This document shows, piece by piece, positions 17,612 to 53,870 of a stretch of DNA of 64,000 nt. Position 1 is the stretch's first letter, and every line of letters begins with the position of its first letter. The DNA is from an uncultured Acidobacteriota bacterium. GTDB taxonomy: Bacteria > Acidobacteriota > Thermoanaerobaculia > Multivoradales > DATKCC01. Location: assembly GCA_963739795.1 (NCBI GenBank), contig CAVUBL010000010.1:410798-474797 (forward strand), read 5' to 3'. The notes below the pieces were generated by a model, which made no database searches, was not told where the DNA came from, and saw only the letters and a list, made by a program, of their open reading frames with translations. The position numbers and the translations under genes are program-made.

Positions 17612-17688
17612 GGCGCGCTGCCCCAACTGGTAGAGGGGCCCGACTTAAAATCGGGCGGTTCCGGGTTCGAGTCCCGGGCGCGCTACCA
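17612..17688 (+). tRNA. tRNA-Leu(TAA), 77 nt, short variable loop, encoded CCA
   Basis: Acceptor GGCGCGC/GCGCGCT-A-CCA; anticodon arm CCCGA-CTTAAAA-TCGGG; T arm CCGGG-TTCGAGT-CCCGG. Confidence 0.9.
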
Positions 17689-24282: not shown

Positions 24283-24360
24283 GCGCGGAGCAGTGTAGTG
24301 CACGCGACAAGCTCGTGCACCGGCCGGCTCCGCCATCCCGGACACCGGGCACCGGGCCCC

Positions 24361-24391
24361 GCGGCCGCCGGGGTCGGGCTCCGGCGGCCGC
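24361..24391. terminator. GC-rich hairpin downstream of the RND operon
   Basis: GCGGCCGCCGG-9nt-CCGGCGGCCGC; no U-tract. Confidence 0.3.
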
Positions 24392-24407
24392 TTGCCGGCA
24401 TGAGCTT

Positions 24408-27400
24408 CTACACCTCCAGCCGGTCGTTCGGCCGGGCGACGAGCAGGTAGAGCGCTGGCATCGAGAAGATGCTGATGACCAAGCGCGCCACCAGGCCGGC
24501 GACGATGACCAGCGCGAAGGGGCGCTGCGAGTCCGAGCCGATGCCGGTGGAGAGCGCCGCCGGCAGCAGCCCCAACGCCGCCACCAGGGCCGTCATCATG
24601 ATCGGTCGTAGCCGGACCAGCGCCGCCTCGTGGGTCGCCGTCGCGATGTCCACCCCTCCGCGCCGCAGCTCGTTGGCGTACGAGATGTAGACCACGGCGG
24701 TCTGAACGGAGACCCCGAAGAGCACCAGGAAGCCGATGCCCGACGAGACCGAGAACGGCGTCCCGGTCGCCCACAAGGCGACCAGGCCTCCGACCGGGGC
24801 CGAGAGCAGCACTCCGACGACCGTGATCAGTGGGAACTTGAAGTTGCTGTAGAGGGCGAAGAGCAGCAGGAAGATCACGAACAGGGTCAGCGGCAGGATG
24901 ATCCTCATCTGCCGCCGCGAGGCCGTGTACTCCTTGTACTCGCCACCCCAGTCGATCCGGTAACCGGTCGGGATCTTCACCTTCCCGCTCACCTGGCGCT
25001 GTGCGTCCTCGACCGCGGAGGCCAAGTCCCGGCCTTCGACCGAAAACTGAACGCCGATATAGCGCTGGTCGTTCTGCCGGTAGATGAACGAGGCGCCGTT
25101 CTCGATGCTGATCTTGGCGAGCTCCTTGAGCGGCACCTGCTGGCCGCCCGGCGTGGCGACCAGGATGTTGCCGATCGTCTGCGGGTTGCTGCGGAACTGG
25201 GGCTCCAGGCGAACCACCAGGTCGAAGAGCTTCTCGCCCTCGACCACCTCGGTCGCCGCATCGCCTCCCACCGCGGCTTCGATCAGGTCGTTGATGTCTG
25301 CGACGTTCACCCCGTAGCGGGCGATGGCGGCGCGATCGACCTCGATCGCCAGGCTCGGCTGGCCGAGCTCCTGGACCAGGGTCACGTGGTCGATGCCGCG
25401 CACCCCCTCGAGGACGCGCTTGATCTGCTTGCCCTTGTCCTCGAGGACGTGGAGGTCACTGCCGAAGACCTTGACCGCCAGCGCGCTCTTCAGGCCGGTC
25501 TCCGCCTCGTCCACCGCATCTTCGGCCGGCTGGGTGTAATTGAAGATGATGCCGGGGAAGGACTCCAGCTTCTGGTCGATGGCGGCGATGAGCTCGGGCT
25601 TCGTGCGGTACTTGCCGTGCCACTGGCTGTACGGCTTCAGGCCGACGAAGAACTCGGCGTTGAAGAAACCCGTGGGGTCGGTGCCGTCGTCCGGCCGCCC
25701 GTGCTCGGAGGCGACCACGGTGACCGGCCCGAAGGAGCGCAGAACCTTGCGGATCTCCGGCACGATCTTGCGCGACTCGTCGAAGGAGATGGTGTACGGC
25801 ATGGTGGCCCGCACCCACAGCGCCCCTTCGTCCAGCTTGGGCATGAACTCCGCCCCGATGTGGGGGATCAGGAGCATCGACAGGCCCAAGAGCGCGGCCG
25901 AAACGAAGGTCGTCGTCCAGGGGTGGCGGAGACTCGCGTCGAGACCGCGGCCATAGACCCTCTTGGTCCACTCGAACGCCACGTTGCGCCGCTCCTTGAC
26001 GCCCCGCCTCATCGCCCAGGAGCAGAGCACCGGGAGGAGAGCCAAGGTGACGATCAGGGAGCCCACCAGGGCGAAGATCATGGTGTCGGCCATCGGCTTG
26101 AACAGCTTGCCCGACGGGCCGGAGAGGACATAGATCGGCAGGAAGCCGGCGATCATCACCACCACCGAGTAGAAGATCGGGCGGTCGACCTCCGCCGCGG
26201 CGCGGACGATGAGCTGATGGATCTTGATCGGTTGCTCGTGGTTCTCCGCCACCTGCCGGAAGATGTTCTCCACCATGAAGACGGCGCCGTCCACGAGGAT
26301 GCCGAAGTCCACGGCGCCGATCGAGAGCAGATTGGCTGGGATCCCCTTGAGGTCCAGGCAGACGAAGGCGAAGAGCAGGGCGAGAGGGATGGTGACCGCG
26401 ACGATCAGACCGGAGCGCCAGTCGTAGAGAAAGAAGATCAGCGCCACGACGACCAGGACCATGCCGCGCATCAGGTTGTCCTCGACCGTGCGGGTGGTGA
26501 GGTCGATGAGATCCGTGCGGTCGTAGAAGGGATGGACCTTGACGTCCTTGGGCAGGATGTGCGCGTTGAGCTCGCGGGTCTTGGCTTCGACCCGCTTGAG
26601 CACGGTCTGCGCCTGCTCGCCCTTGCGCAGCAGGATCACGCCCTCGACGGCGTCGCTCTTCTCGTTGAAGCCGAACTGGCCGAGGCGCGGGGCGTGGCCG
26701 ATCACCACCTTCCCCACGTCCTTGACCAGGACCGGCGTGCCGTCGTGGACGGCCAGGACCACCTGGCCGATGTCCTCCGGGGTGTGCACCCGTCCGAGGC
26801 CGCGCACGTAGTAGAACTGCCCGCCCTCCGAGTAGAAGCCGCCGCCGGCGTTGCCGTTGTTGGCGGCCAGCGCCGAGACCACGTCGGCGACCGAGAGCCC
26901 CGCGCCGGCGATCTTGGACGGGTCGAGGAGCACCTGGTACTGCATCGTCTCCCCGCCCAGCCCGGAGTCGTCGGCGACGCCGGGCACCGCCTTGAACTGG
27001 CGCTCGACGATCCAGTCTTCGATCGTCTTGAGCTCCATCGGAGAGCGATCGGGGCTCTCGAGGACGTAGCGGTAGATCAGCCCCGACGGCGAAAAGAGCG
27101 GTGCCACCGAGGGCGAGACCCCGTCCGGAAGCTCGACGTCGGGCAGACGCTCGAAGACGAGCTGGCGGTCGAAGTAGTTGTCGGTCTTGTCGCCGAAGGT
27201 GAGGCGCACGTCCGAGAGGCCGTAGAGCGAGATCGACCGCTGCACCACCATCCCCGGCGTGCCGTTCATCTCGACTTCCGTGGGGACGGTGATCAGCCGC
27301 TCCACCTCCTCGGCGGCGTGCCCCGGCCATTGGGTGACGATCTCGACCAGGGGCGGAGAGAGATCTGGATAGGCGTCGACCGGCAGGCGGCGGAAGGAGT

Positions 27401-37052: not shown

Positions 37053-37370
37053 TCAGGCCGCCGTGTGCCTCGGGATCTTCTCCACCTCGCTCTCGAGCTT
37101 CCGCTCGGCGTGCCAGAGGTCGTACTCCGTCTGCATGCGGAGCCAGAGGCCGGGACCGTTGCCGCAGAAGCGGCCCAGGCGGACGGCCATCTCGGGCGAG
37201 ACGGCGGAGCGCTCGGCGAGGACCGCGTGGAGCATCTGGCGCGAGACGCGGAGCTGCCGAGCGGCCTCGCTGACGCTCAGACCGAGGGCGGGGAGCACGT
37301 CCTCGCGGAGAATTGCTCCGGGGTGGGTCGGGGCCATTCGAGGTGGCTGTTCCGCGGGAATCTCGGGCAT
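37053..37370 (-). CDS. higA: HigA/VapI antitoxin
   Basis: THPGAILREDVL..LSVSEAARQL..SPEMAVRL..WLRMQ..YDLW. Confidence 0.9.
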   Translation of the reverse strand: MPEIPAEQPPRMAPTHPGAILREDVLPALGLSVSEAARQLRVSRQMLHAVLAERSAVSPEMAVRLGRFCGNGPGLWLRMQTEYDLWHAERKLESEVEKIPRHTAA

Positions 37371-37383
37371 CTCTCTCCTGCCT

Positions 37384-37659
37384 TCAGTGGTACTGCTCCA
37401 GGTCCACCCGGAGGGCATCGCCGTCGTCCCACTCGAACGTGATGCGCCACGGGCCGTTGACGGCGAGGGCGTAGCGTTCGGGCTTTCCGTGGAGGCGGTG
37501 GAGTCGCCAGCCGGGCAAGTCGAGATCCTTCGGGTCTTCTGCGGCCTGAAGCGCCGTCAGTCGCATCCGCACACGATCGACCAGGTCGGGACGGATCCCC
37601 TTCGGGTCGTTCGCGTTCCAGAGCCTCGCCAGCCCCTTGTGCCGGAAGCTCCGGATCAT
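37384..37659 (-). CDS. higB: HigB (RelE superfamily) toxin
   Basis: MIRSFRHKGL..DLDLPGWRLH.L.G..VNGPWRITF signature. Confidence 0.9.
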   Translation of the reverse strand: MIRSFRHKGLARLWNANDPKGIRPDLVDRVRMRLTALQAAEDPKDLDLPGWRLHRLHGKPERYALAVNGPWRITFEWDDGDALRVDLEQYH

Positions 37660-37721: not shown

Positions 37722-37742
37722 GGCCCGCGCACAGCGCGGGCC
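37722..37742. other. Hairpin/cruciform downstream of VR2
   Basis: GGCCCGCGC-aca-GCGCGGGCC, 12 nt past the stop codon. Confidence 0.75.
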
Positions 37743-37754
37743 AGAGGGCCAAGA

Positions 37755-39939
37755 TCACAGTCCTCCCGACGACGAACAACACACCCGAAACCCGATGACG
37801 TCGTTGCGGCTCTCGGGATGGACGACGTCGCGGTAGGCCGCGCGCAGGTACCTCGGGTAGTCGTGGAACGAGCCGCCCCGCAAAACCCGCGACGCGCCCG
37901 AGGACGGTCCGCTCGGGTCCTTCTCGGCTTCCGGGGGGTAGTCCCCGTACCAATCACCGCACCATTCCCAGACGTTGCCGGCGAGATCTTGGACTCCCTC
38001 CGGCGTCGCCCCCTCGGGGTAGGCGCCCACCGGCGTGGTGTCCCCAACACTCATGCCAAAGTTGGCCAGCTGCTCGCTGGGCTCGGCGTCTCCCCACGGG
38101 TACTTGCGCCCGTCGGGCCGCCGGGCGGCGTACTCCCACTCCGCCTCGGTGGGCAGCCGCACAAGACGTTCGTCTCCGCCCTCGGAGATCCGGCTTGAGA
38201 GCCACTCGCAAAACGCCATCGCATCCATCCAGGAGACGTTGACCACCGGGTGCTCGTCCTTGCCCTCGGGGATCTGCCCGTCCACCCAATGCTCCGGAGG
38301 CTCCTTGCGCGTCGCCTTTACGAAGACGGCGTACTCGGCGTTGGTCACCGGGTGGCGCGAGAGCCGGAACGGGCTCACCGTGACACGCCGGACGGGGGAT
38401 TCGTTTTTCTGGGCCTCTGAATCGTAGCCCGGGCCGTCCGGCTTCGTCCTGCTGCGCCCCCATCCAGAAGCTGCCTCCGGGGATCTCGAGCCAGGCCCCG
38501 GAGCCCAGGTCGAAGAGGTCTCGCTTGCCGCTGACGGGCCGCGCCTTGGGCGCTTCGACTGCCGGCGGCGTGGCGAAGTAGACCAGCAGGTGGCGCTGGC
38601 GGTCGCTGAGCTCTCGCAGCACCTTGAGATGCCGCTCCGGAAGGCCGCTCGCCCGGATGCGGGCCCACTCCGGAGGAGCTTCCTTCTCCCCGGCCGTCCC
38701 CTCCGCCGAGTCCTCGGTCTCCAGCCGTTCCATGTCCAGGAGAAACTTCCTCAGGTTCTGGGGCAGCGCTCGCACCTCTCGCCAGCGGTCGGCGGGCAGA
38801 ATCTCGGAAAGGAGGTGCCAAGCGACGACAGCGGGCTCGGGTAGCTCTTCCTCCCCCTCGCCCAGCTTGCCCGTATTGCGGAGCACCGCGAGAGTCATCG
38901 AGAGGTCGTTCAGGAAACGCTTCACGTGGCGGGGGTGCCGGGTCTCCAGGGCTCGAGCCAGGACCCGGACGTCTTCGCTCCCGCGCTCGCCGCCCGATCC
39001 CAGGACCCTCGCCAGGTCGGAACCCTCGAGGAGGCCGGTCACGTACCCTTCCGCCCCACTGGGGCTCACCTCCGGAAGGTCGAAGGCGACCTGGACGACC
39101 TTCTCGAGGAACTGATCCGCCTGCCCCTGAACGGTCTCCGGCAGGACTTCGACCAGGCGCTCCCAGTCGATCCCCAGGAAGAAGCAGACGCCGGGGAGGT
39201 CGAGGAAGAGGTTGATGGCCTCGATCACCTCGACGACTCGCTCCCGCCGACACCGGTCCAGGTCGTCGAGGAAGACGGCCAGGACCTCTCGGCGCTGGGT
39301 TTCCGGGCTCCAGAGCTGCGCTTCGGTGAGGCCGCCGGTATCGCGGAAAGCGGGCTGGAGCTCGAAGAGGAGCCGGGAGACCTCGTTGAAGAGGTCCCGG
39401 AAGGTGTCGTGGAAGGCCCGCTTCTCGTGGGCCGGGGCGTAGCGGCTTTCCGGGCCGTCGCCGAGGATGAGATCCCGGAGCGGCGCCGGCGCCGCCAGGC
39501 CGAAGAGGGCCTTCAAGGTCGCGCTCTTGTACGAGCCGACCAGGTGCTTGAGCTGGTCGAGCATGCCGCCCTTGCGGAGCTCGTCGATGGCGGCGCCCAG
39601 CAGGCCGGCCAAGATCGTGTCGTCGTCCGGGTACTTCCAGGCGTTGAACCAGAGGGTCCGGACCTTGCGGACGCCGGCAGGAGGGTTCGACTCGGGCTTC
39701 CCCGGGTTCTCGAGTAGCCACTGCGCCCGGCGGAGCAGCGTCGTCTTGCCGCGCCCCCAGCCGCCCCGCACCACCACCGTGAAGGGCGTCGAGTTGTCCG
39801 GGTTCCAGGCCAGCTCCGCCAGGGTTCGGGCGAAGCCCTCGAAACCGAGATCCAGCTCTTGCTCCCGAAGGGGATGGTCCGGGAAGACGCGCGCGAGGCG
39901 GGACGCCTCCGACGCCTCGGACTTCTTGCCCTTGCTCAT
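37755..39939 (-). CDS. DGR target 2: KAP-family P-loop NTPase fused to FGE-sulfatase/CLec domain (one indel near 38450)
   Basis: GGWGRGKTT, FNAWKY, FLDDLDRC, FLEKVVQVAFDLP; [31 protein letters not shown]; ends in VR2. Confidence 0.88.
37758..37895 (-). repeat. DGR variable repeat VR2
   Basis: 138 nt; 12 substitutions versus TR in the variable core, all at TR adenines. Confidence 0.93.
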
Positions 39940-40961
39940 GGGCTCCATCCTCTCAAACTTCGCCACGTCCCGGCCAGCTCGACGTGGCCGCGCCAGGCGG
40001 CGAGGCTCCGCTCGAGCTCCTCCGGCAGCTCGCCACCCTGCCGGCGGCGCCGCAACCGGCGCCGATACCGTCGAACGGTCTCACCGCGGACCCGGATCCG
40101 ATCCGGCCAGACGACATAGCCCAGGAACGGAACCCCTTCGTCCGATCGGCGGATCGACGCTCTTGCGGGGGTGGGCCACGAGGCGAAGCTCCGCGAGCTT
40201 GCCTTCGACTCGTTCCATCCACTGCCGTCAGGACTGCTTCTCGTCGTGAAGGAGGATGAAGTCGTCGACGAAGCGCAGGTACGCCGGCGCGCGCAAGCGT
40301 CCTTACCCAGTGGTCGAAGCCGTCCAGGTACAGGTTGGCCCAGATCTGCGCGGTCAGATTGCCGATGGGCAGGCCCTGCCGTCGGTCCCAAGGGGTGAGA
40401 CAGTCGTCGCCTGGGAAGTAGCACGAAACGGCTCGCGGGCTCGTGCCCATGATCCACGATTCGATCGAGCAGGGAGAGGAGCAGGGCATCCTTGAAGATT
40501 CCCGGAACTTCGCCTTCAGGATCTCATGGTCGATGGCCGGGAAGTACTTCCGAACGTCCACCTTGAGGGCGTAGCGGAAACGGCCGGCGAAACGCTGGTA
40601 GCGGAGAACGGCCCGGTGGCTTCCCTTGCCCCGCCGGTTGGCCCAACAGTCGAAGATCAGGCGGCGGTCGATCTCCGGTTCGATCACGTTGCAGATCGCG
40701 TGATGGACCACCCGGTCGGGATAGGGAGCGGCCGAGATCCAGCGCCTCTTGGGATCGTGAACCAGGAAGTGGCGATGAGGTGAGGGGCTCCAGCTCTCGG
40801 CCGCGAGCTCTCGGCTCAGGCCGATGGAGGTGGTCCTCCAGGCGGCGGTTGAAGCAGAGGACGTCCGGGCGGTAGCGCTTCCCGCACTGGGCTCGGCGGG
40901 CAGCGAGACGGAGGTTTTCGAAAGAGCACACCTCGGCGAAGAGCCCTCCGACCCGGCGCAC
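39936..40961 (-). CDS. DGR reverse transcriptase (several single-base indels as sequenced)
   Basis: Assembled from frames: [67 protein letters not shown]. Confidence 0.88.
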
Positions 40962-40971
40962 GGCGCGACGC

Positions 40972-41335
40972 CTACTCTTCTCGACGGGGCCCGGTGGCCT
41001 GGAGCCACCCGCCGATCATCCGCCCCAGCTCCTCGTTCTGGCCGCTGATGTATTCGAGCTGGCGTGGGGACAGGGCCTCGACCTCGGCCGCCAGCCGCAG
41101 CAGGATGCGGAGCTGGTCCAGAAGGCGGTTCGCCCGGTGGAGGGGGCGCTCCTTGCTGCGGGCATGGGACGCCTCGACGAGGGCCATGCAGAGGTCGAGG
41201 GCCGTGGTCTGGAGCTCGGTCGCCCAGGGTCAACTTGTAGCCGCCGGGGAACCGCTCGACCCGCGGCAGCAGCCACCGGTTGACGTCGTACGCCTTCTGG
41301 ACGATGGGAAGTAGCGCGTCGTCTGAGGGCGACAT
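40972..41335 (-). CDS. avd: DGR accessory variability determinant (four-helix bundle; one indel near 41220)
   Basis: KAYD..WL...[27 protein letters not shown]...ELGRMIGGW. Confidence 0.85.
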
Positions 41336-41360
41336 GGAGAAGGGAAGACCCAGGCGGCGC

Positions 41361-41401
41361 CCCCGCCGCGCGTTCGCCGACGAGCTACCAGCGCGGCGGG
41401 G
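41361..41401. other. Stem-loop in the TR-avd spacer (Sp-like DGR RNA element)
   Basis: CCCCGCCGCGC-19nt-GCGCGGCGGGG perfect 11 bp stem. Confidence 0.45.
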
Positions 41402-41532
41402 AGCCTTCTTCTTCGCCCGCGACCCGCGGGGCGCGACCCGGTCGGCCGGCGGGACTGGAGAGCGCGCGCTCCAACCGGGCCACCGTGGTGGCGCGACTGG
41501 ACTCCGGCGTCGCACCTGGAAGGCCAGGCCCC

Positions 41533-41671
41533 CAGTGCTCCCGACGACGAACAACAACACCCGAAACCCGATGTTGTCGTTGCGGTTCTCGGGATGGTTG
41601 TTGTTGCGGTAGGCCGCGCGCAGGTTCCTCGGGTTGTTGTTGAACGAGCCGCCCCGCAAAACCCGCGACGC
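41533..41671 (-). repeat. DGR template repeat TR
   Basis: 139 nt, 10 in-frame AAC codons ([32 protein letters not shown]); non-coding location. Confidence 0.95.
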
Positions 41672-41734
41672 TGTGCCGGCTGACCGCGGAGACGGTATCA
41701 CGGCACCGCTCGGCGCTTGCAGGATTCGCGGCGC

Positions 41735-41753
41735 GCCCGCGCACGGCGCGGGC
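41735..41753. other. Hairpin/cruciform downstream of VR1
   Basis: GCCCGCGC-acg-GCGCGGGC, 13 nt past the stop codon. Confidence 0.75.
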
Positions 41754-41766
41754 CAAAGGGACGAGA

Positions 41767-44700
41767 TCACAGTCCTCCCGACGACGAACAACAAACCCGA
41801 AACCCGAAGTTGTCGAAGCGGCCCTCGGGATGGACGCCGTCGCGGTAGGCCGCGCGCAGGTACCTCGGGAGGCAGATGAACGAGCCGCCCCGCAAAACCC
41901 GCGACGCGCCCGAGGGCGGTCCGGTCGGGTCCTCCTCGTCTTCCGGGGGGTAGTTCCCGAACCAGTCGGCGCACCACTCCCAGACGTTCCCGGCCAGGTC
42001 GTGGAGCCCCTCCGGCGTGGCTCCCAGGGGATAGATCCCGACCGGTGTGGGGCGCCCGACGTTCCAGGCGAAGTTCGCATGGAGGGAATCCGGCTCCTCT
42101 TCTCCCCAGGGGTAGCGTCGGCCTTCCAGGCCTCGAGCAGCCAGCTCCCACTCGGCCTCGGTCGGCAGGCGCCCGCCCGCCCAGCGGCAGAAGGCGTCCG
42201 CCTCGTACCAGGAGACGTAGGTCACCGGGCGGTTCGGGTGCCGGAGCTGGTCGTTCCAGGAGTCCGGGCTCGTGTATCCCTCTCGCTCCCGCCAGGTCCA
42301 CCCTTCCGGGTCCCAGCTCCTGGGGTCGAGGTACCCCTCGTCGCCCGCCTCGACGAACCTCCGGTACTCCTGGACCGTCACCGGGTAGCGCCCGAGGACG
42401 AAGGGGCTCACGGTGACGCGGCGGACCGGGGATTCGTCGCCGAAGGCGTCCGGGTCGTAGCCAGGGCCAGGGGCCTCGGAGTCCGCCGTCTGGGCGCCCC
42501 TCCAGAAGGTGCCGCCGGGGATCGCCACCCGGTTCTCCTCCGGCTTCGCCAGACGCGGGTCCCCGGCCTGGCCGAGGGCCTCGCCCACGTCCACGCGAAC
42601 GGCTTCCTCGACGACCTCTTCGCCTTCCGCAGGAGGCTTGAAGATCGTGATGGCGTTCTCGAGGGCGGTCGAGTATGCGGTGCCCGCGGCGGGGTCACCG
42701 CCGTAGGGTTTGAGGTCCACGAGAATCCGGCCTACCAGGCCCACGGCCCGGGCCTCGCTCACCCGGTCGGTGCCGGTCGCGAGGATCTTCTCGAGGAGTC
42801 GCCGGGTGGCCCGCCGCCCGTCCAGGTGGCACAGGCACCCTGCCAGCAGCAGGACCACCTCGCTCCAGCGGTCGTCGTAGAGCCGGCCGTCCTTGGAGAG
42901 GACGTCCCAGTATTGGCCGTCGGTCTTGAGCTCGCGGGCCGCCAGATACTCCTGGAAGGAGAGATGCCAGAACTCGACCTCCCCCTCGGTGTGGCTCACC
43001 ACGATGCCACTCTCGAGCGCTTCGGCTTCGAGGAACGCCCGGCCCTCGGCCTCTCCGGTCTCGAGAACGGGGGCCACGGCTCGGCTCGCCTCGGGCAGGC
43101 CCAGGGAACGCTGGACGCCCTCTGGATCGGTGAACATGTCGAGGGCCAGGGCCTGGAGGGCCTCCTGCCGCTGGCTCGTCGTGAAGGCGAAGTGGTCCTT
43201 GTGGGAGTCCAGGAGATAGGAGATCGCCACCTCGTAGAGCTCGTTGCGGCATTCCGGGAGCTTCTTCTGGTTCCAGTGGACGACCGCGAGCATGGTGAGC
43301 ATCAGGGGGCTCTCGGTCATGGGGCCCACGTCCTCGTGGGAGCGGATGGCCTCGAGGAGCTCGGCCTCGTACTCCGCCGCCTCCCGGCTGGCGTCGGGGC
43401 CGGCGCCCGCACCCTCCGACCCCGGGTCCCGGACCTGGAAGAGGGCGCGGCTCCAGCCGCGGATGAAGGTCGCCACCTGGTCATCGTCGAAGGGCGCCAA
43501 GGGATAGGCGGGCAGGCCGCCGAGGTGCGCGAGCCGCTGATAGGCCCGGGTGCGGCAGGTGATGAGGTGGCGGTTGGGGCGGTCGGTGGAGCCGGTGGCC
43601 ACCAGCTCGTCGACGATGGCGGCGACCCGGGTGCGGAGCGCCCCAGGCACCTCGTCGAGGCCGTCCAAGAGGAGGAAGCAGCCGCCCGAGGTGACACGGC
43701 GGCGCAGGTAGCCCTCCGACAGGCCGAGGTTTCGGCCCTGGAGGTCGAAGTCCAGGTACCGAAGCAGGTGGTCGGGGGCGTCTTCGGGGCAGGAATCGTT
43801 CGGCTGGTCGGCCAGGAACCGGGCGAAGCTGGAAAGGTAGACGAGGACCGGGAAGGGGATCTCCTCGGCGGTGGTGGCGTCGAGGCCCAGCTCGCGGGTC
43901 GCCAGTCTCGGGTCCCTGGTGAGGAGCGACCGGGCCAGGACCTGCGCCGCGAAGCGGAGGAAGGTGGTCTTGCCCGACCCCGGGTCGCCGATGAGGACGG
44001 CGTGCGGCGAGCGGCTGAGGGCCTCGGGAAGCTCGAGGTGCCGCTCCCGGCGGAGATCCTCCTCGATGGGCTCGTGCTGCCGCCCTTCGGGTCCGACGCC
44101 GGCCACTCGAAGGCGGGTGTAGACGCGATCGAGCGGAAGGCGCTCGGCGACCTGAGCGCCCATACCCCGGATCTTGACGTAGGAGTTGCGGCTCTCGACG
44201 GCCTGGAGGTAGCGGGTGGGGTCGGGACCTGCCGGTCGCCGCGTGCCCTCCGACCCCCAGGCTCACCACTTCCTGGGCCACCTTCGGGCCGGTGGCCTGC
44301 GATCTGTCGGCGAGCTCCTCCACCAGCTCCAGCAGCCGCTTCGCCACGTCCTCCCAGGCCTTGTCCTCGTTCCCCCACTCGGGGTCCGTCACGGCGAGGC
44401 CGTTCGTGGGAAGGGCCTGGAGCTTGCCGAACGGAGCGGTCTGCCAGTTCCCCGTCGGCCGGACGATCACCGGCACCACCCGGGCCTCGCCTCTTCGCCT
44501 CCCGCTCCAGCGCCCGCTTCATCTCCCGGCCCCAGATGAACTCCGAGGCGATGAAGTCGTCGCTCACCAGGAAGAGGATGAGGTTCGCCCGCTCCAGCTC
44601 TTCCGCGATCCCCTCCTCCCAGCGGTCGCCGGGGAGGAGCTTGCGGTCGGTCCAGGTGTCGATCAGGCCCTGGCGCTCCAGGAGCTTGAGCGCCTTCTCG

Positions 44701-44774
44701 AGGCGGATCCGGTGCCGGTCGTCGGCGTGCGAGTAGCTGAAGAAGACCCGGACGGGTGGACGTTCGTCGCTCAA
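41767..44774 (-). CDS. DGR target 1: TIR-NACHT(STAND)-FGE-sulfatase/CLec protein (indels near 44500 and 44225)
   Basis: [35 protein letters not shown] (TIR); [28 protein letters not shown] (NACHT); FGE motifs; ends in VR1. Confidence 0.88.
41770..41907 (-). repeat. DGR variable repeat VR1
   Basis: 138 nt; 16 substitutions versus TR in the variable core, all at TR adenines. Confidence 0.93.
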
Positions 44775-45084
44775 GAGATTCCTCCGATGGAGTGGAAGCT
44801 ACCACCCTGAGTGGTGGGAACCACCTGGCCGTTTCGCATCAAGCCGGCGGGCGCCGGAGCTCGGCCGGGAGATTTCCACAGGGAGCTTCGGAGCGGCGCC
44901 GTGGCAGAACCGGCACTCCGGCGGGCATGGCCGGGGTGAGCCCAGGGATGTCGGTCATGGTCCCGACTCCAGGCACGAAACGAAGAGCGATCGTCACGCC
45001 GAGGCGCCGATCGAGGGCGGCGGGGGCGTTGCCCAAAGGACCCGGCGCGGGAGGGCAGCCGTGCAGTCGACGCACCTCCGCTCC

Positions 45085-45720
45085 ACTCAAGTGGACGGTG
45101 AGGGCGAAGTACACGGCCAGCGGTACGCCGTTGAGTCGCGCGGGCCGAACCACCGACGGCGGATCGCTTGAGGGCACTGTAACTAGCGTCGCCTGTCGAG
45201 GGCCTCCGGAACGCCGCGGTTGGATACCTGCCCGTGCATGGCGATCATCGTCTCTACGTCGACGCGTCCGCGGACCGCGAAGAACTGAGTGCCGAATGGA
45301 AACTTCTCAGGTAGTCGGGCGTACCCGTGGGTCGAGTGAGCTTGCCGGGTGGCGAGGCGTGAACCGACACCGCCTCGCCGTCCGCGAGCAGCGTGGGCCG
45401 GGCCTCACGGAGCGGGTTCGCGGCGAGCAGGCTCCCCGGATCGCCGAACTGCCGAGGACCTCGCTCGCCAACGAGGAGTCAAGTTGAGCGCCACGTGCCA
45501 GTCCCAGATCGTCGCTTCCGGGCGACGAGACCGGCCTCGCTAGAGGACGGTGAATCAAGAAGATGCCGAGAACCTGACTAGCCAACCGCCCTGGGCCGAG
45601 GCGCTCGACCATCTCGTCGAAGAGCGGCTCAGATTTCATCTGTCCGCGTGTAATCGCGGGCCAGGAGGGCTTGCTCGCCTTCCTGATCGAGGTCCTCCAG
45701 CGCTTGCGGCGGTCCCGGGC
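45085..45720 (-). pseudogene. Degraded TonB C-terminal-domain gene
   Basis: Fragments GRVDVETMI..GQV and RPARLNGVPLAVYFALTVHL in different frames. Confidence 0.35.
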
Positions 45721-45964
45721 GCGGAGGGCTCCCGGGAAGATGGTGGGTAGGAGCGCGAACGTTGTCCACACGCGATCCACGAGACCCTCCCAAGCCGACG
45801 CTAGGCAGGAGACAAGAGTGTCCTGTCCCGGGCGGGAGAGATGGCGGTCTCGGGCCGCCCTGGCTCGCTTGGGGATTCGGTGGACCGTCGCCTCCGAGCT
45901 GTCGCGCCAGGATCCCCCCGAGGCTCGAGTTGAGCCGCCCGCCGCCTGGTATCATCGGCAGAGA

Positions 45965-46213
45965 ATGAAGCCGCCGCCACCAGCGCTCTCTGGTTCGGGC
46001 GTGTCCCCGACTCCGGTTCGCGGTGTCTCTCACTCGCGGGACGACGAGAGCCTCGAAGCGAAGGCGCGATGGTTCCAATCGCTCTCCGTCGAAGAGCGGA
46101 TGGCGTATCTCGTCGAGCTCACTGAGCTGGCCCTCCAGAACAACCCCCGCATCGCCGAGTCCAAGGATGCTCCAGCGGCTTCAGGGCGTGTTCGCGTCCT
46201 TACGCTCCCATGA
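45965..46213 (+). CDS. Small protein paired with the nucleotidyltransferase (putative TA partner)
   Basis: KARWFQSLSVEERMAYL; overlaps the downstream NTase; duplicated at 33.0 kb. Confidence 0.55.
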   Translation: MKPPPPALSGSGVSPTPVRGVSHSRDDESLEAKARWFQSLSVEERMAYLVELTELALQNNPRIAESKDAPAASGRVRVLTLP

Positions 46214-46622
46214 CGTCGAATACCTGGTGATCGGCGGAATCGCCGCCGTTCTCCACGGGGTGCCGCGGGCGACGTTCGATCTCGACATCCTCATCCGGCC
46301 GGACCTCGAGAACGCCCGGCGACTCCTCCAGGCATTGCTCGCGGCAGGACTGGCCACCGCGGACCTGACGACGCCCGAGGAAGTTCTGGCCAACGAGATC
46401 ACCATCTTTCAGGACCGCGTCCGCATCGACGTCCAGACGTCGACGCCGGGCCTCGACTTCGAGACGGCCTGGCGGCGGCGGGAGACCATGGACTACCAAG
46501 GGGAGCCATTCTTTGTGGTGTCCCGCAAGGACCTGGTGGCCTCGAGGCGAGCCGCCGGGCAGGACGTGGATCTTCAGGACGCGGAGATGCTCGAAAGCGC
46601 CGGCGAGGACGAGGACGCCTGA
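46167..46622 (+). CDS. Minimal nucleotidyltransferase (DUF6036/MNT-like)
   Basis: YLVIGGIAAVLHGVPRATFDLDILI, RIDV and AAGQDVDLQD motifs. Confidence 0.8.
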   Translation: MLQRLQGVFASLRSHDVEYLVIGGIAAVLHGVPRATFDLDILIRPDLENARRLLQALLAAGLATADLTTPEEVLANEITIFQDRVRIDVQTSTPGLDFETAWRRRETMDYQGEPFFVVSRKDLVASRRAAGQDVDLQDAEMLESAGEDEDA

Positions 46623-46724
46623 CGGTAAGGCGGCGGCCCCGGCTCTGGGTCTTCGGGGCCTGGCCGGCGGTGGGGCGGCGAGGTGGTTCAGGGAGAAGAG
46701 CCTGGCAGCCCCCCCTGGGCGGCC

Positions 46725-47186
46725 CTACAGAGGCACCTCGCTCCATCGGAAGGTGGGGACGAAGCGCTCCAGATGTCGCACGTTCTCGGTGACGACAGAG
46801 CCGCCGACGGCAATCGCTTGAGCGGCGAGGATGGCGTCGCCGTCGAGTGCCTCCGGCGCCGCGGTGGGGCGCCCACTGTGGCGAGCCTCGGCCCACAGGC
46901 CGGCAGCTCGTCGGAGCGTGGACGTGTCAAGGCTCAGGTAATCGAGCGTCTCGGTGAGTCGGTCGAGGCGCTGTAGGCTCCGAGTCGTGGACCGCCCGCT
47001 GCGAAGGGCAACGTGCAGCAGACCTCGCCGGACCTCGTAGTCGACGATCTCGGGAAGGCAGATCACGATGGAGTGAGCCCCCTCGAGTAGTAGTTGCGTG
47101 AGCCACGCAGCCACGGGATGGTTCGCCTCGCGGGCTGGATGGCACAGCCTCGAGACGACCGTCGAGTCGAGAAGGAGAACCGTCAC
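46725..47186 (-). CDS. vapC: PIN-domain (VapC-like) toxin
   Basis: LLLDSTVV, IVDYEVRRG, DGDAILAAQA and TENVRH acidic tetrad. Confidence 0.85.
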   Translation of the reverse strand: MTVLLLDSTVVSRLCHPAREANHPVAAWLTQLLLEGAHSIVICLPEIVDYEVRRGLLHVALRSGRSTTRSLQRLDRLTETLDYLSLDTSTLRRAAGLWAEARHSGRPTAAPEALDGDAILAAQAIAVGGSVVTENVRHLERFVPTFRWSEVPL

Positions 47187-47374
47187 TCAGGACAACGCAC
47201 GCCGAGGGTGGGGAGCTCTTCCTCGAGGAGGGGCCAGATTTCATCGTCGTAGCCAGTCGGGTCTTGCTCCCACTTCCGGAGGAGGTCGGCTGCTCGGCGA
47301 TACCGGCGCACGCGATCCCGCTCCGCCGGTTCGGCGGTGACTGGTTCCTGGGGAGAAGTGATGCTCGTCTTCAT
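47183..47374 (-). CDS. Putative VapB-type antitoxin (63 aa)
   Basis: Small acidic ORF overlapping the PIN start. Confidence 0.55.
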   Translation of the reverse strand: MKTSITSPQEPVTAEPAERDRVRRYRRAADLLRKWEQDPTGYDDEIWPLLEEELPTLGVRCPE

Positions 47375-47798
47375 GGTCTCGGCGGGAACTAAGTGGACCT
47401 TCCGAGTGTAGCAGAGCTTCGGAGCGAGACCCGGCCCCGGGTCAGAAGCACCTGGCACGACACCCAGGTGCGGGAGGAAGCTCGCGGAGAGCTCAAGGAC
47501 GCGGCGCGGAGGGTCGGCCAGGTGATCGGCGTTCGCTCGCTCGTGGCGCAGGCGGCGCCGGGGATCGGCACGGCGCTCGGGCTGGTGCGGATCGCTCGGC
47601 GGGTGGTGCGGCAGATGGAGCTGGATCGGGGGGGTGGGCGGGAGCGGTGACGGGGGACACCGGCCGCCCGCCGCCCTATTGCGCATTCGCAAGCCAGGCC
47701 CAGAAGCACCTGGCACACCCTCCGGCGAGCTCGAGGAGAACGGCGTTCACCTGGAGGCCGTCGAGGGGCAGCGCCTTTCTACCCCTCTGGGGAGAGCT

Positions 47799-47906
47799 TC
47801 AGCCAGCCGGACCCAGGACGAACCGCGCTCGCTCCCGCCGGAGCATTGCGTAGGGCGTCATGTGCTTCACACCGAGCCCGATGCAGGCGTCCAGGAGGTA
47901 GGCCAT
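47799..47906 (-). pseudogene. DUF4411 (PIN-like) gene with large internal in-frame deletion
   Basis: 35 aa MAYLLDA|CIGLGVKHMTPYAMLRRERARFVLG matches my recollection of the DUF4411 N- and C-termini joined; TGATG-coupled to the peptidase gene. Confidence 0.65.
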
Positions 47907-49051
47907 CAGAAGCCCACTCCGAGGCTCTGGCCCAACTGGTGGAACGTCGCCATCTTCTTGACGCCCAGCAGGCGGAACGATTCGGTGAACGAGGTCCGTC
48001 CTTCCAGCGTGCTGGTGACCATGGCCCGGGCAAAGCGCTTGCTGACGCGGGCCGGGAGGGTGAGGTAGAAGTTGCCGCCGGAGCCCCGGGGCATGCCGCG
48101 CAGGCGGGCCAGCTCCTCCTCGTAAGCCGACCAGAGCTCAGGCCGGCTCAGGCCACCGGCGTCGTGGATACGGCGAAGGACGACCAGGGTGCTCACCTTG
48201 AAGCGCCGAGCCAGGCGGGCGAGCTCGCTCCGCAGTGGGGCCTTTGCGTCGTACTCGGAGCGCACGAGCTCGAGCGGAGCCAGGAGCTCGGCGGCGACGC
48301 GGTTGCACCAACGTTCGGTCGTCTGGTCCGGAACCGCGACGGCTTGGGCATCGGACACCGCGGACTGACCCAGCCACAGATGCGCGAGCTCGTGGGCGAG
48401 GGTGAACATCTGCGCCGCCTTGGTGTCGGCGCCGTTGATGAAGACCAGGGGCGCGAGCGGATCGCTGAGGGCGAATCCTCGGAACTCGTCCGGGTCCAGG
48501 TGGCGGTGGGTGTTGCTCCCGACGACTCCGCTCACCATCACCAAGATGCCGAGGTCGTCGGCCTGGGCGATGAAGCGGCGGAGCGCCTCCGTCCAAGTGG
48601 AGAGGCGGCGGCGCTCCTCGACGTCGAAGGCCAGGGCGCCTCGGATGGCTGCGGCGGTGGCCACGACGTCGTCTCCAAGTCCCGCCGAGCCGGTGAATCC
48701 GAGCGGTCTCTCCCCCACCGAGCGCGCGAAGTCGCGGAACCAGTCCTGGCGCTGCTGGCAGAGGTAGATCGTGTCGAGGAGGTCCGGGCTGGGACGCCCG
48801 AAGCCGGCGCTGGCGACGGTGCGGAAGTCCGGGATCGGGACTTCCTCGGCCGGCGGCTCGGGCAGGAACAGAAAGCCGATCGGGGTGAAAGTCGCCCTGG
48901 CGAAGCGTTCGAGCTGCTTGAGGGTGGGAAGCCGTTCACCGCGTTCCCAGGCGTCGAGCTTCGGGAAGCGCCTACCGAGCGCATCGACGCTCAAGCCGCT
49001 GCGCTCGCGGGCCCAGCGGAGCAGCTCGGGCTTCACCTCTACACGGTTCAT
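47906..49051 (-). CDS. HTH + ImmA/IrrE-family Zn metallopeptidase
   Basis: N-terminal XRE HTH (LRWARERSG..PTLKQLE); FTLAHELAHLW HExxH. Confidence 0.9.
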   Translation of the reverse strand: MNRVEVKPELLRWARERSGLSVDALGRRFPKLDAWERGERLPTLKQLERFARATFTPIGFLFLPEPPAEEVPIPDFRTVASAGFGRPSPDLLDTIYLCQQRQDWFRDFARSVGERPLGFTGSAGLGDDVVATAAAIRGALAFDVEERRRLSTWTEALRRFIAQADDLGILVMVSGVVGSNTHRHLDPDEFRGFALSDPLAPLVFINGADTKAAQMFTLAHELAHLWLGQSAVSDAQAVAVPDQTTERWCNRVAAELLAPLELVRSEYDAKAPLRSELARLARRFKVSTLVVLRRIHDAGGLSRPELWSAYEEELARLRGMPRGSGGNFYLTLPARVSKRFARAMVTSTLEGRTSFTESFRLLGVKKMATFHQLGQSLGVGF

Positions 49052-49559
49052 CGTTCTCCTTCGCCTTTAGAGCTGGAACGGGCCTCTCGATCGACTCAAG
49101 CTACGACGCGCGGGACCTCGTCTGGATCGACACGAGAGGAGGTCCGGGAAGGGGTGACTGGCGAGGGCGCTGTGGAGGGAGGGGCCACCGCCCACGCGGC
49201 TGGGTGCTTGAGGCGAGCCAGTTGCCAGGGGTTTGTGAAGGAGGGCAGAGCTGTATGGGAGGGGAGGGTGGGTGAGCAGCTGCGCTGCTAGGAGGGGGGG
49301 TTTGGAGAGGTAGCGAGGGCAGTGCTGAGGAGGGTGGTAGGCGCTGCAGGGGTTTGGGATGGGATGGGGGTAGGCGCTGGGGATGGAGCAGCTTCAGTAT
49401 AGCGGGAGCGCTCGCGCTAGGTGCGGTGACTTCACCGGTAAGCAAGTGGATGTGCACGCTGCAGCGTGCCATCGAGGAGCTGGATCGCGGGGGAAGGTGG
49501 GGGCGGTGGGGTGGGGATCCCCGCGGGTTTAGCGCAGTTGCGGGAAGCGGGCTTCAGCT

Positions 49560-50069
49560 TCACGGGTTCGGCACGAAGCGATGCTGGAATCCTGCGTCCT
49601 CAAGCGGCGCCGCAGATCCCGAGCTCCTGGATGGTCGGAAACGCGAAGAGAAAGGGCGCATGCGAGACGTAGTAGAAGGCTGGGAAACGCTCTGGTGCAA
49701 GGCCCGCAGCTTGGCTCCTCTCTGGTCAGCGAGGTCGAGCTCATGGCTGCGGTAATGGCTCTGGTCAAAAGTGATGATGCAGCGAGGCTCTCGTCGCAGC
49801 TGATCCACTATCGAAGCGACGCGATGTGCGTGCGCCTTCGGATTGATTAGCCTCGCCTGGCAAACGGATTCCGGTATCTGGGTGTTCAGGAGCGAATAGA
49901 TGGACGGTCGGTTGTGCGGCAAGATGGCAATTCCGGTGAGGCGGGTGAACTCCCCTGAAGATCCTCGGGCGGGAACCGGGGCTCTGCGTAGATGGGTGCC
50001 AGTCCGCGAGGAGCTGCTGCCAGAGCCCCTTGACCACATCGTAGGAGTGGCCAGGTAGTCGCGTTTCAC
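49560..50069 (-). CDS. Hypothetical protein, frameshifted, lower GC
   Basis: Coherent segments MKRDYL.HSYDVVK, CIITFDQSHYR and FYYVSHAPFLF across frames. Confidence 0.4.
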   Translation of the reverse strand: MKRDYLATPTMWSRGSGSSSSRTGTHLRRAPVPARGSSGEFTRLTGIAILPHNRPSIYSLLNTQIPESVCQARLINPKAHAHRVASIVDQLRREPRCIITFDQSHYRSHELDLADQRGAKLRALHQSVSQPSTTSRMRPFSSRFRPSRSSGSAAPLEDAGFQHRFVPNP

Positions 50070-50255
50070 TGTCGAAGCGTCTCTGAGGCCAACGGCCTAT
50101 CGTTAGCGGCGGCGCCACTTGCCACTGCCCCTGCCATCGCGCTCCCTGCGCCCCACGACGAGGTGTACACTGACTCGGGAACCTTTCGCGAGGACGACAG
50201 GTGCAAGTTGGGTGGCGACCACTGAGGAGATGCATTGAGGCCGTCTCCAGAGGCC

Positions 50256-51210
50256 TTAGTGGAACTGCCTCAGAATCTTCCTGACTGTTCGGTCCAGGTC
50301 TTGATCTGTCTGTCGTAGCTGCTCAATCTTGTCCACAGCGTACATCACCGTAGAATGGTGTTTGTTGCCGAATGCTTTCCGATTTCTGGGTATGAGAGGT
50401 TTGTCAACTTCTTGCAGCAATACATCGCTACCTGGCGAGGAAATGCGACCTGTTGGGAATTTGTCCGGCTCAGAACCTCGTCGACTTTGAGGCAGTAGAG
50501 ACGTGCTACATGCCTGATGACCGCGCGCGCGTCGACGCGGCGTTTACGCGATCGTCTGACGGATGCCGCTCGGTTCTCCGCCAGCTTCGCCAGGTAGGGA
50601 ACGGTGTAGATGCTCTCCAAGAGGGCACGACAGAGGTCCGAGAGGAGGTCCGCCTCGCCCGCCGAAAGCTCGCCAGGTCCGCGTGAGCCCCAATGTTCCG
50701 CATTCTTCTAAACTGGGAGGCAACGCGGACGAGCTTTGGCGGGATCTCCCCTTTTTCCTCGAGGTTCTTAAGTTTCTCAAACAGGTTGTCGCCCCGAGCG
50801 TCGCGATCCGCACAAACTCTCTCGATCACCCTCCCAAGCAGAACAGCGTAGCCGTTGAAGTCGATGGGCTTCACGCGCTCCGCGGCTTCCAATGCGGAGG
50901 CTACCTCCTCTGGCAAGCCTTTCGGGTGGAGTTCTCCAGGTGGGTAAACGGTGTCCGTCAGAATTAGTTCAGGGCTCCCGCCCTCCTCAAGAATGCCCTG
51001 CACTTCATGTTCCGTTCCCTGAGAGAAGAGAAGGCTAATACCTCCGTACGGTGGGCAACGGACCAGCTCCCAGGTCCTCCATGCTGTGTCGCCTCCGGAG
51101 GCATCTTCTTCCTCGCTGTACTCCCGAAGTACGTAGAGAAGTCCGGAATTCCCGCAATGTCGGCAGAGATGGGGGGCTGCAGTCAGCCGTCCGTCGGGGT
51201 CTCCTGGCAT
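50256..51210 (-). CDS. DUF4145 (HEPN-like) domain fused to DnaA domain IV (two single-base indels)
   Basis: CRHC; LGRVIERVC..LFEKL..L..RNIGAH; then FPRQVAMYCCKKLTNLSYPEIGK(A)FGNKHHSTVMYAVDKI. Confidence 0.75.
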
Positions 51211-51385
51211 CAACCACCCTCCCGCGGGCCACCTATCGCTTCCAGGCGAATGTTCGGCATCGAAGCATGTCTTAGACCAAGCGACGAGCCGGCCTCACCT
51301 TCAGTTGCGCGGCCGCGGTCGCGCCTCGGCGGCTCTCCACGCCGGACGGGACGAAGGCCCGAAGGCAACCCTGATCATCCACTCC

Positions 51386-51586
51386 TTATTCGTCCAGATG
51401 AAGATGAGCCCGAAGCGCCTCCCTCATGATCTCCGAGGCAGGTCTGTCTTCCTCAAAGGCGGCTCTCCGCAACGCCTCTCGCTCATCGGGATGCAGGTAG
51501 ACCACACTCCGTATCAGTCCGGCCTTCGTAACGGTCGTTTTGCCTCCGCGCGGCCCCTCTGTCGGGGGTTTGGATTTCTTCGCCAT
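51386..51586 (-). CDS. Ribbon-helix-helix (CopG-like) regulator
   Basis: RSVVYLHPDEREALRRAA..SEIMREAL; SD GGAGG upstream. Confidence 0.7.
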   Translation of the reverse strand: MAKKSKPPTEGPRGGKTTVTKAGLIRSVVYLHPDEREALRRAAFEEDRPASEIMREALRAHLHLDE

Positions 51587-51629
51587 GCACTCCTCCCAGC
51601 GAGAGTATACATGATGGGATTTAGGGCTC

Positions 51630-51658
51630 TTGACATTAGGACCCAAAGGCCCTAGCCT
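51630..51658 (+). promoter_or_regulatory. sigma70 promoter, back-to-back with the RHH gene promoter
   Basis: TTGACA-17-TAGCCT; flanking TAGGGC/GCCCTA inverted repeat; TATACT on the minus strand at 51604-51609. Confidence 0.55.
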
Positions 51659-51791
51659 AGGTGACGGCGACTTCGAAGATGCTGGAGCGCCGCAAACACG
51701 GGGCGGGCTGCCGCCGCCCACAAACAGAAACGGCCCCGGCAGGTGCGGACACACCCACCGGAGCCTGACCACTCAAGGAGGTACAAGCTCC

Positions 51792-52136
51792 ATGAGCAGC
51801 TTGACGGATCGTATCTCGCCCGCCGACCCGACGAACGAGCAGCTTCGGGTCTCCCTTCTGATCGGCCTCGGCCTGCTGCACATCGGGGCCGAGATCCTTT
51901 CCCGGGCCCCGGACGTCGAGACGGCGCTCGAGGCCGGGGACCGGGAGCGGTTTCGGCTCCTCTTCGCGGCAGAGGCGGCCCACTGCTGGGTCGTCGGCCA
52001 CGGCGCCTCCGACTCGGCCGACTTCCCCGGCCAGGACAGCGCCTTCGCGGCGGCGCTTCGCGCCCTCGACTGGACGCCCGAGGAGCTGGAGCGGCACTTC
52101 TCCGCCGCGCTCGCCGACCTCCGCGAGGAGGGCTGA
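51792..52136 (+). CDS. Hypothetical protein
   Basis: SD AGGAGG, ATG 51792, TGATG-coupled to radC. Confidence 0.55.
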   Translation: MSSLTDRISPADPTNEQLRVSLLIGLGLLHIGAEILSRAPDVETALEAGDRERFRLLFAAEAAHCWVVGHGASDSADFPGQDSAFAAALRALDWTPEELERHFSAALADLREEG

Positions 52137-53577: not shown

Positions 53578-53652
53578 TGGAGGCGACGGGCGGATTCGAA
53601 CCGCCGAATGAGGGTTTTGCAGACCCTTGCCTTACCACTTGGCTACGTCGCC
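53578..53652 (-). tRNA. tRNA-Cys(GCA), encoded CCA
   Basis: GGCGACG..AGGGT-CTGCAAA-ACCCT..GGTTCGAATCC..CGTCGCCTCCA. Confidence 0.96.
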
Positions 53653-53697
53653 TTGGGCGGGGTCGGAGCGCGCCCTTGGCGGCCCGACTGCGCGGCG

Positions 53698-53783
53698 AGT
53701 TTAGCATCCACTCGACGAGCCTTCAACAGGCCCGGAATCGAGCCTCGGCGGCGCTTGACAGTGCCCGCCGGCCCGTCTATCCT
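53698..53783. promoter_or_regulatory. Divergent sigma70 promoters for tRNA-Cys and tRNA-Gly
   Basis: Minus strand TTGAAG-17-TAAACT (53698-53726); plus strand TTGACA-17-TATCCT (53755-53783). Confidence 0.65.
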
Positions 53784-53795
53784 TGGCCTCCCCGG

Positions 53796-53870
53796 GCGGG
53801 AATAGCTCAGTGGTAGAGCACAACCTTGCCAAGGTTGGGGTCGCGGGTTCGAATCCCGTTTCCCGCTCCA
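53796..53870 (+). tRNA. tRNA-Gly(GCC), encoded CCA
   Basis: GCGGGAA..CAACC-TTGCCAA-GGTTG..GGTTCGAATCCC..TTCCCGCTCCA. Confidence 0.97.

Follow-up and report, generated by a model that had tools for sequence, protein, structure and literature searches.

A chromosomal diversity-generating retroelement with an adenine-only repeat signature beside a frame-disrupted reverse transcriptase

We analysed a 64-kb stretch of DNA (the window; contig CAVUBL010000010.1 of assembly GCA_963739795.1) that probably derives from a high-GC bacterium of the class Thermoanaerobaculia (Acidobacteriota). It carries a 7-kb cassette with the parts of a diversity-generating retroelement (DGR), in the order target 1 with variable repeat 1 (VR1), template repeat (TR), structured RNA, avd, reverse transcriptase (RT) gene and target 2 with VR2; the TR, both VRs and all other DGR elements are on the minus strand (Table 1). 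Judged from the sequence, the repeats are those of a genuine chromosomal DGR, because the TR and VRs differ at adenines only, RT and bAvd genes lie beside the TR, both targets end in lectin domains, the pattern recurs in relatives, a C/G position separates TRs from VRs, and TR and VRs have co-evolved. The original prediction, made from this sequence, had already read the repeats as a TR and two VRs shaped by adenine-specific mutagenesis; the adjoining RT and bAvd genes, the lectin-domain targets and the adenine-only pattern in relatives bear it out. The architecture itself is already known. What is less usual is a broken mutator beside a pristine adenine-only signature.

Adenine-only differences between the template and variable repeats

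We aligned TR, VR1 and VR2 without gaps over their first 112 nt, anchored at the common 5' block GCGTCGCGGGTTTTGCGG. VR1 differs from the TR core at 16 positions and VR2 at 12, and a TR adenine lies under every one of these mismatches (28/28). The substitutions from TR to VR are A>T (13), A>G (13) and A>C (2). The hypergeometric chance that all mismatches should fall on adenines is 5.6e-13 for VR1, 2.2e-9 for VR2 and 1.2e-21 for the two jointly. The original prediction had given the same 16 and 12 core differences, all on TR adenines, and had called for a pairwise alignment; the anchored alignment reproduced the count and contained zero non-adenine mismatches in the core, and translation returned the same three TR, VR1 and VR2 peptides. 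The window contains exactly three copies of a 30-nt 5' block and three of a 19-nt 3' block, where shuffled sequence leads one to expect 0 to 0.05, and it therefore holds exactly one TR and two VRs. Non-adenine differences between TR and VRs are confined to the initiation of mutagenic homing (IMH/IMH*) positions, a 1-nt indel and one neighbouring synonymous G/T.

The 10 AAC codons noted previously in the TR were found again, and the 5.8e11 variants computed from them are correct as arithmetic (15^10 = 5.77e11). This figure is a lower bound only. Besides AAC, the TR has single-adenine codons of the types AGG, TAC, CAT, GAG, GAC and ATC, and because six more TR codons thus hold one mutable adenine each, the ceiling rises to ~1.8e15 peptides per VR. 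Nine adenine sites are mutated in both VRs, and at six of the nine the two carry the same base, against three expected (binomial p ~0.04); examples are PR(N>Y)L and YR(N>D). These identical bases suggest either selection on scaffold residues or a partly common history of the VRs.

Two related loci allowed comparison across lineages. The first (L023; ENA ERZ25039483 contig_48805, ~81% nucleotide identity) encodes TIR-NACHT-FGE, TR, avd, RT and KAP-FGE, and the second (L024; GCA_974013605.1) is an intact cassette with two TIR-NACHT-FGE targets. Core TR/VR mismatches lie at adenines in 33/33 cases in L023, and in L024 at adenines in 29 cases and elsewhere in a few. Five substitutions part the window TR from the L023 TR, and each of the five is common to the cognate VRs, while the surrounding target genes are only ~77-82% identical. 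In each lineage the VRs have thus been rewritten from their own TR after the split, and such TR-VR co-evolution is direct evidence that retrohoming once took place in the lineage of the window.

Table 1. Features of the DGR cassette and of the island that holds it (positions are those of the window)
Feature	Position	Strand	Remarks
TR	41533..41671	-	139 nt; 26 A in the 112-nt core; 10 AAC codons
VR1	41770..41907	-	final 46 codons of target 1; 16 substitutions, each at a TR A
VR2	37758..37895	-	final 46 codons of target 2; 12 substitutions, each at a TR A
Structured non-coding element	41345..41532	-	~190 nt; helices 41509-41356
Hairpin 1, GC-rich	41735..41753	-	GCCCGCGC-CGT-GCGCGGGC; begins 13 nt past the target-1 stop
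Hairpin 2, GC-rich	37722..37742	-	GGCCCGCGC-TGT-GCGCGGGCC; after the target-2 stop
avd, bAvd-like	40972..41335	-	~120 aa; +1 frameshift near 41215
DGR RT	39936..40961	-	~340 codons; pseudogene as sequenced
Target 1	41767..44774	-	TIR, then NACHT (STAND) NTPase, then FGE-sulfatase/C-type-lectin ending in VR1
Target 1, intact open reading frame	41767..44163	-	798 aa; NACHT NTPase + C-terminal FGE-sulfatase/C-type-lectin
Target 1, N-terminus	44164..44774	-	TIR + linker; out of frame with the NACHT reading frame
Target 2	37755..39939	-	KAP-family P-loop NTPase + FGE-sulfatase/C-type-lectin ending in VR2
Insertion relative to L079	~18305-53577		~35 kb
tRNA-Leu	17612-17688
tRNA-Cys/Gly	53578-53870
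Type I restriction-modification, broken part	18349-21140	-
hsdR	21439-24774		looks whole

Repeat ends, hairpins and a structured RNA

The TR ends in GGGAGCACTGG (IMH*) and the window VRs in GGGAGGACTGTGA (IMH), which in VR1 includes the stop codon; the IMH of VR2 is identical to that of VR1. Across the window, L023 and L024, all six VRs read GGGAGGACTG(T/G) and all three TRs read GGGAGCACTGG. The C (TR) versus G (VR) at GGGAG(C/G)ACTG is thus kept in 3/3 loci, though the TRs differ at up to 28 positions. The original prediction had interpreted the 3' difference as IMH*/IMH, and the difference is real; a C/G split between donor and recipient repeats is what that interpretation predicts, with a putative role in homing.

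The prediction had also left a 1-nt length difference near the 3' end, which is likewise real and can now be placed: it is one extra T in a (TGT)n run of the TR near 41554 (TR GGGTGTTGTTGTTCG, VR2 GGGTGTGTTGTTCG, VR1 GGGTTTGTTGTTCG). The extra T is missing from both in-frame VRs and from the L023 TR, which at the same place reads GGGTGTTG-TGTTCG where the window VR2 reads GGGTG-TGTTGTTCG. Copying it would put a VR out of frame, and both VRs lack it. Next to the indel, VR1 and VR2 differ by one synonymous non-adenine G/T (Val, GTT/GTG). Outside the IMH, VR1 has a single non-adenine difference from the TR, beside the indel, and the 28/28 count holds for the core.

A GC-rich hairpin of the form GGCCCGCGC-NNN-GCGCGGGCC stands behind 6/6 VRs of the three loci and behind none of the TRs. 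Its stem is of 8-10 bp, it begins 13-15 nt past the stop codon in the six VRs, and we regard it as a candidate target-recognition hairpin or cruciform. Efficient homing of the Bordetella phage DGR depends on a GC-rich hairpin/cruciform located 4-34 bp past the VR, which according to Guo et al. 2011 has a 7-10 bp stem and a 4-nt GRNA loop (PMC3240598). The loop here, in contrast to that of the Bordetella phage BPP-1, has 3 nt (CGT, TGT or CGG) and fails the phage GRNA consensus.

Between the TR and avd lies a structured non-coding element with an invariant purine-rich GGGCGAAGAAGAAGGC (41420..41403) and helices on either side. We aligned it over eight loci of the RT clade (the window; L023 5312-5502; L024 9103-9290; L028 1-185; L030 130-318; L031 170-352; L032 7420-7610; L001 3654-3850), across which it is more conserved than coding DNA. 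Compensatory changes were found in 22 of the 45 predicted pairs. Paired cells make up 93%; the figure is 82% in shuffles, of which 0/500 attain what was observed, and slid controls give 37-49%. The window sequence retains 43 of the 45 pairs. A search of 36.5-45.5 kb with Rfam returned no family, just a sub-threshold chance match to the hepatitis C virus (HCV) stem-loop. In this clade the element probably corresponds to the Bordetella 'Sp' priming RNA (the DGR RNA 3' element). With its invariant purine-rich loop it is a concrete candidate for the RNA that would prime synthesis and bind the RT.

Bordetella RT-Avd copies the TR RNA, priming from the structured RNA that lies 3' of the TR, and its misincorporations fall at adenines (PMC6182149); assisted by the hairpin, the phage cDNA takes the place of the VR as far as the GC-rich part of the IMH (PMC3240598). 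By the same scheme, a transcript with the TR and the downstream structured RNA would be reverse-transcribed by RT-Avd, priming from the structured RNA and misincorporating opposite template adenines. The cDNA would then replace the last 46 codons of the two target genes up to the GC-rich part of the IMH, with the IMH at the 3' end of each VR and the GC hairpin past the stop directing the homing, while the TR would be protected by its IMH*, with C in place of G. These biochemical steps we infer from homology with the Bordetella phage DGR; the sequence signatures themselves were seen directly.

State of the reverse transcriptase and of the cassette

The RT gene changes frame near 40822 (+1), 40501 (-1), 40445 (+1), 40300 (+1 or -2) and 40154 (+1), and the longest in-frame piece is of ~107 codons. 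An in-frame TGA (40230..40228) lies, according to the DNA alignment to L023, within a short -1/+1 out-of-frame stretch. Three-frame translation, the phase of GC content at third codon positions and frameshift-aware protein-to-DNA alignment against two independent intact RTs all agree on the lesions, and none of the sites is in a homopolymer longer than 3 nt. The motif IGNLTSQ reads IGNLTAQ in the window, an alanine replacing a serine that is invariant in 100/100 homologues; FVDD is present, and the gene clearly belongs to the DGR clade of RTs. The stitched RT has thousands of homologues, of which the best, intact proteins of 341 aa, are 74-80% identical over 99-100% of the query. The best of a scan of metagenome RTs, at 84% identity, is on a 2.5-kb contig, and the best of a scan of genome contigs, at 64%, is from a Holophagae metagenome-assembled genome. 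At sites invariant in five relatives, private RT changes have a nonsynonymous-to-synonymous ratio (N/S) of 1.9, compared with 0.9-2.8 in intact relatives, and many of the nonsynonymous changes lie beside frameshifts. Stitched across its own frameshift, the avd product gives a match to Pfam bAvd (E=1.1e-15) and another to the Avd of L023, which is intact.

Programmed frameshifting or an alternative genetic code was rejected as an explanation of the broken frames, because it does not fit at least five unrelated sites without a common motif and because neighbouring genes use TGA as their ordinary stop. The protein-guided alignment gave an apparent bias towards +1 insertions, but the L023 DNA alignment has both insertions and deletions, and we propose no special mutational mechanism.

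The targets are damaged too. In target 1 a +1 shift lies near 44492, within the TIR domain, and the linker changes frame again at ~44305-44229; in target 2 a +1 frameshift near 38433-38446, where the lectin domain begins, parts the two modules. To map frame changes window-wide we used a codon-usage Viterbi path and counted same-strand switches without a nearby stop. Switches occurred only in the DGR cassette, at 19351 and around 60.3 kb. The one at 19351 reflects a real frameshift in hsdM; the flags at 60289 and 60571 are noise, since the 826-aa reading frame matches an 832-aa orthologue in L079, a 3.08-Mb contig from the same sample as L023. In all there are ~11 or more indels in the 7-kb cassette, a few in the adjacent restriction-modification (R-M) genes and none in >12 kb of housekeeping and efflux genes. 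The lesions are local, because full-length matches to NCBIfam profiles were obtained for the housekeeping and czc genes (NuoL, NuoM, A-adding tRNA nucleotidyltransferase, CzcA, CzcB and CysS).

In L023 the RT is cut by a ~1.9-kb insertion sequence (IS) with a DDE_Tnp_1 transposase (L023 6685-8608), and avd and both targets are intact; RT loss has thus arisen independently in this group. The L023 IS site corresponds to window ~40161-40164, within a few nt of the +1 at ~40154 in the window itself.

We hold, with moderate confidence, that the DGR has recently been silenced ('frozen') and that its VRs retain the last written specificities. It is most likely non-autonomous, because five frame changes and a stop interrupt the RT and because disrupting indels are also present in avd, in the TR, in target 2 and in the TIR domain; given these lesions, ongoing diversification is not to be assumed. 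Real decay is supported by the confinement of the lesions to two defence systems, by their position outside homopolymers, by the serine-to-alanine change in the RT and by the IS loss in a relative. Several observations weigh against it. The damage is almost wholly indels, and the private substitutions of the RT show no clear excess or relaxed N/S; ~7 indels/kb in the RT with few substitutions is unusual for natural decay and resembles long-read consensus errors. The lesions are uneven, with none in the 2.4-kb NACHT-FGE reading frame. The non-adenine core positions of TR and VRs are 100% identical, so that very little neutral time can have elapsed since homing last occurred (the 95% upper limit for neutral divergence of the TR is ~2.6%). 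A near-identical copy with which to check the indels was found neither among metagenome contigs, with the 2-fold degenerate 5' 30-mer of TR and VRs, nor by exact look-up of the proteins of the 798-aa reading frame and of CysS.

These observations raise a rival reading, namely that the DGR is intact and active and that the frameshifts are local consensus errors, arising, for example, where polishing was confused by paralogous copies or by low or mixed coverage. Indels with nearly no excess of substitutions, TR/VR identity at all non-adenine core positions, and an undamaged RNA element, IMH and hairpins would all fit, as would the highest indel density being in the RT, the part most conserved between paralogues. 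The relatives' assemblies ('contig_N' names, a 3-Mb contig) suggest long-read metagenomes, which bears weakly on the window. Such errors would, however, have to spare the >12 kb of housekeeping and czc genes, break the codon model only in the DGR cassette and hsdM, and avoid every homopolymer longer than 3 nt. Nor would they account for a changed RT residue that is invariant in 100 homologues, and the L023 IS demonstrates that true RT inactivation occurs in the group. We therefore consider consensus error a serious possibility but the less likely one.

It is improbable that the local RT and avd are dead and the VRs are diversified in trans, by the RT-Avd of a second DGR or from a near-identical TR elsewhere. 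Genomes with several related DGRs are documented (PMC10907252), and supply in trans would explain a perfect non-adenine TR/VR match beside a heavily damaged RT, with RNA element and IMH intact. However, no second RT, TR or VR lies within the 64 kb, avd and the target genes are damaged as well, and neither VR carries the extra T of the TR that would frameshift a copied VR.

The idea that the repeats are ordinary paralogous or gene-converted copies, with an adenine bias due to chance or codon-level selection, is effectively refuted by the joint probability of ~1e-21, by the recurrence of the adenine-only pattern in two other loci, by the position of the untranslated TR copy next to avd and RT, and by flanking DNA of the two targets that is ~77% identical compared with 100% at the non-adenine sites of the VRs, even if the bases common to VR1 and VR2 indicate that selection or common history also shapes the VRs.

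Target proteins, genomic island and known systems

Profile matches support the domain assignments of the targets: NACHT (E=2e-7), KAP_NTPase (E=4e-25) and the two FGE-sulfatase domains (E=1e-57 and 6e-50), whose last 46 codons are the VRs. The TIR_2 profile is matched over positions 1-77 in a single frame and 1-104 when stitched (E=4e-16 stitched). Among PDB sequences, the C-terminal domain of target 1 matches TvpA (2Y3C, E=8.5e-20) and EgtB/formylglycine-generating enzymes (E ~1e-35). Both targets look like sensors of the NOD-like receptor (NLR) type, in which the diversified residues would be the ligand-binding ones of the lectin domain; the sensor role is putative. The RT stop and the target-2 ATG overlap as ATGA (39936-39939), which implies that RT and target 2 may have been translationally coupled in the intact ancestor.

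The best named matches of CysS are from Thermoanaerobaculia (~81%), and L079 reaches 90% identity. Relative to L079 the cassette lies in a ~35-kb insertion between tRNA-Leu and tRNA-Cys/Gly, whose cargo comprises type I R-M, czcCBA, a TonB-dependent receptor, HigB/HTH, the DGR cassette, an IrrE/M78-HTH regulator, DUF4145 and RadC. The reading frames scanned in the island include no integrase. The R-M system is damaged as well: the frame of hsdM shifts near 19340, between GQYFTPR...QPQAG and DPACGTGGFL, and what is conserved of hsdS lies in pieces in two frames that contain stops. Directly downstream of target 2 lie a HigB-like toxin gene (37384-37659) and an overlapping HTH antitoxin-like gene (37053-37418; minus strand). 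Two stretches, 44752-47906 and 49038-51810, have no coding signal under the window codon model, a lower GC content (down to 0.61) and short reading frames only, a DUF6036-like nucleotidyltransferase and DUF4145 among them; such stretches may represent other genes of the island that have decayed or are of foreign origin. The DUF4365 neighbour in L023 has no counterpart upstream of window target 1 (negative alignment score). A role of the targets in defence against phages or other invaders would fit this context, in which R-M, HigB/HTH and an IrrE-like regulator share the island.

Doré et al. 2024 described a cellular DGR lineage with two targets, each with a single C-type lectin (CLec) domain and a central STAND NTPase, or in some a KAP NTPase, and in some a TIR domain, and proposed the targets to be antigen sensors (PMC10907252). 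Like those loci, the window has two targets around avd-RT, a central NACHT or KAP NTPase and one C-terminal CLec/FGE domain with the VR, with TIR in some. By architecture, and leaving RT clade membership (5D) aside, the locus matches this sensor-type DGR. It differs in its host, a Thermoanaerobaculia-like acidobacterium without evidence of multicellularity, and in having RT, avd, TIR and target 2 frameshifted; the words 'pseudogene', 'frameshift' and 'inactive' do not occur in the paper.

The DGR of BPP-1 (mtd VR, TR, avd, brt; PMC3240598, PMC6182149) shares with the window adenine-specific differences, a VR at the 3' end of a gene for a C-type-lectin fold, IMH/IMH*, a GC hairpin of 8-9 bp a few nt past the VR, an Avd partner and a structured RNA 3' of the TR (required in BPP-1). 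The order of parts is VR-avd-TR-Sp-brt in BPP-1 and VR-TR-RNA-avd-RT in the window, which has two targets. The BPP-1 target is a phage receptor-binding protein encoded in a phage, whereas those of the window are NTPase sensors of intracellular type in a chromosomal island.

TvpA of Treponema denticola (2Y3C) is a DGR variable protein with a C-type lectin of the FGE type, and the VR occupies the equivalent C-terminal segment. Unlike target 1, it is a lipoprotein without NTPase or TIR, and the target 1 domain is closer to EgtB/formylglycine-generating enzymes. NTP-dependent conflict systems with DGR-diversified FGE/'FGS' sensor domains were reportedly described by Kaur, Burroughs, Iyer and Aravind in 2020. 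The window resembles these in its STAND/KAP NTPases, TIR effector, DGR-diversified sensor and defence/toxin-antitoxin neighbourhood. No vWA/MoxR 'ternary' partners were found among the reading frames scanned in the window.

The locus extends the TIR-NACHT-lectin plus KAP-NTPase-lectin architecture to a Thermoanaerobaculia-like acidobacterium, and with its relatives it offers a natural comparison of one cassette in the intact (L024), IS-disrupted (L023) and frameshifted (window) states. For annotation, it means that a perfect adenine-only TR/VR signature alone is no proof of an active element. Taking the silenced state further, one could imagine a naturally 'frozen' mutator that was switched off after useful specificities had been reached, twice independently (by RT frameshifts here and by the IS in L023), with the NACHT-lectin reading frame and the cis-elements kept; this would imply recurrent selection against the mutator, and the RNA element would be a new family that defines how the clade primes its cDNA. 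We think this extended picture doubtful enough to be offered only tentatively. DGRs with NLR-type sensors are a proposed form of anticipatory immunity in bacteria, and if the lesions are real, the cassette would bear on how long such mutators last and on the later fate of their targets.

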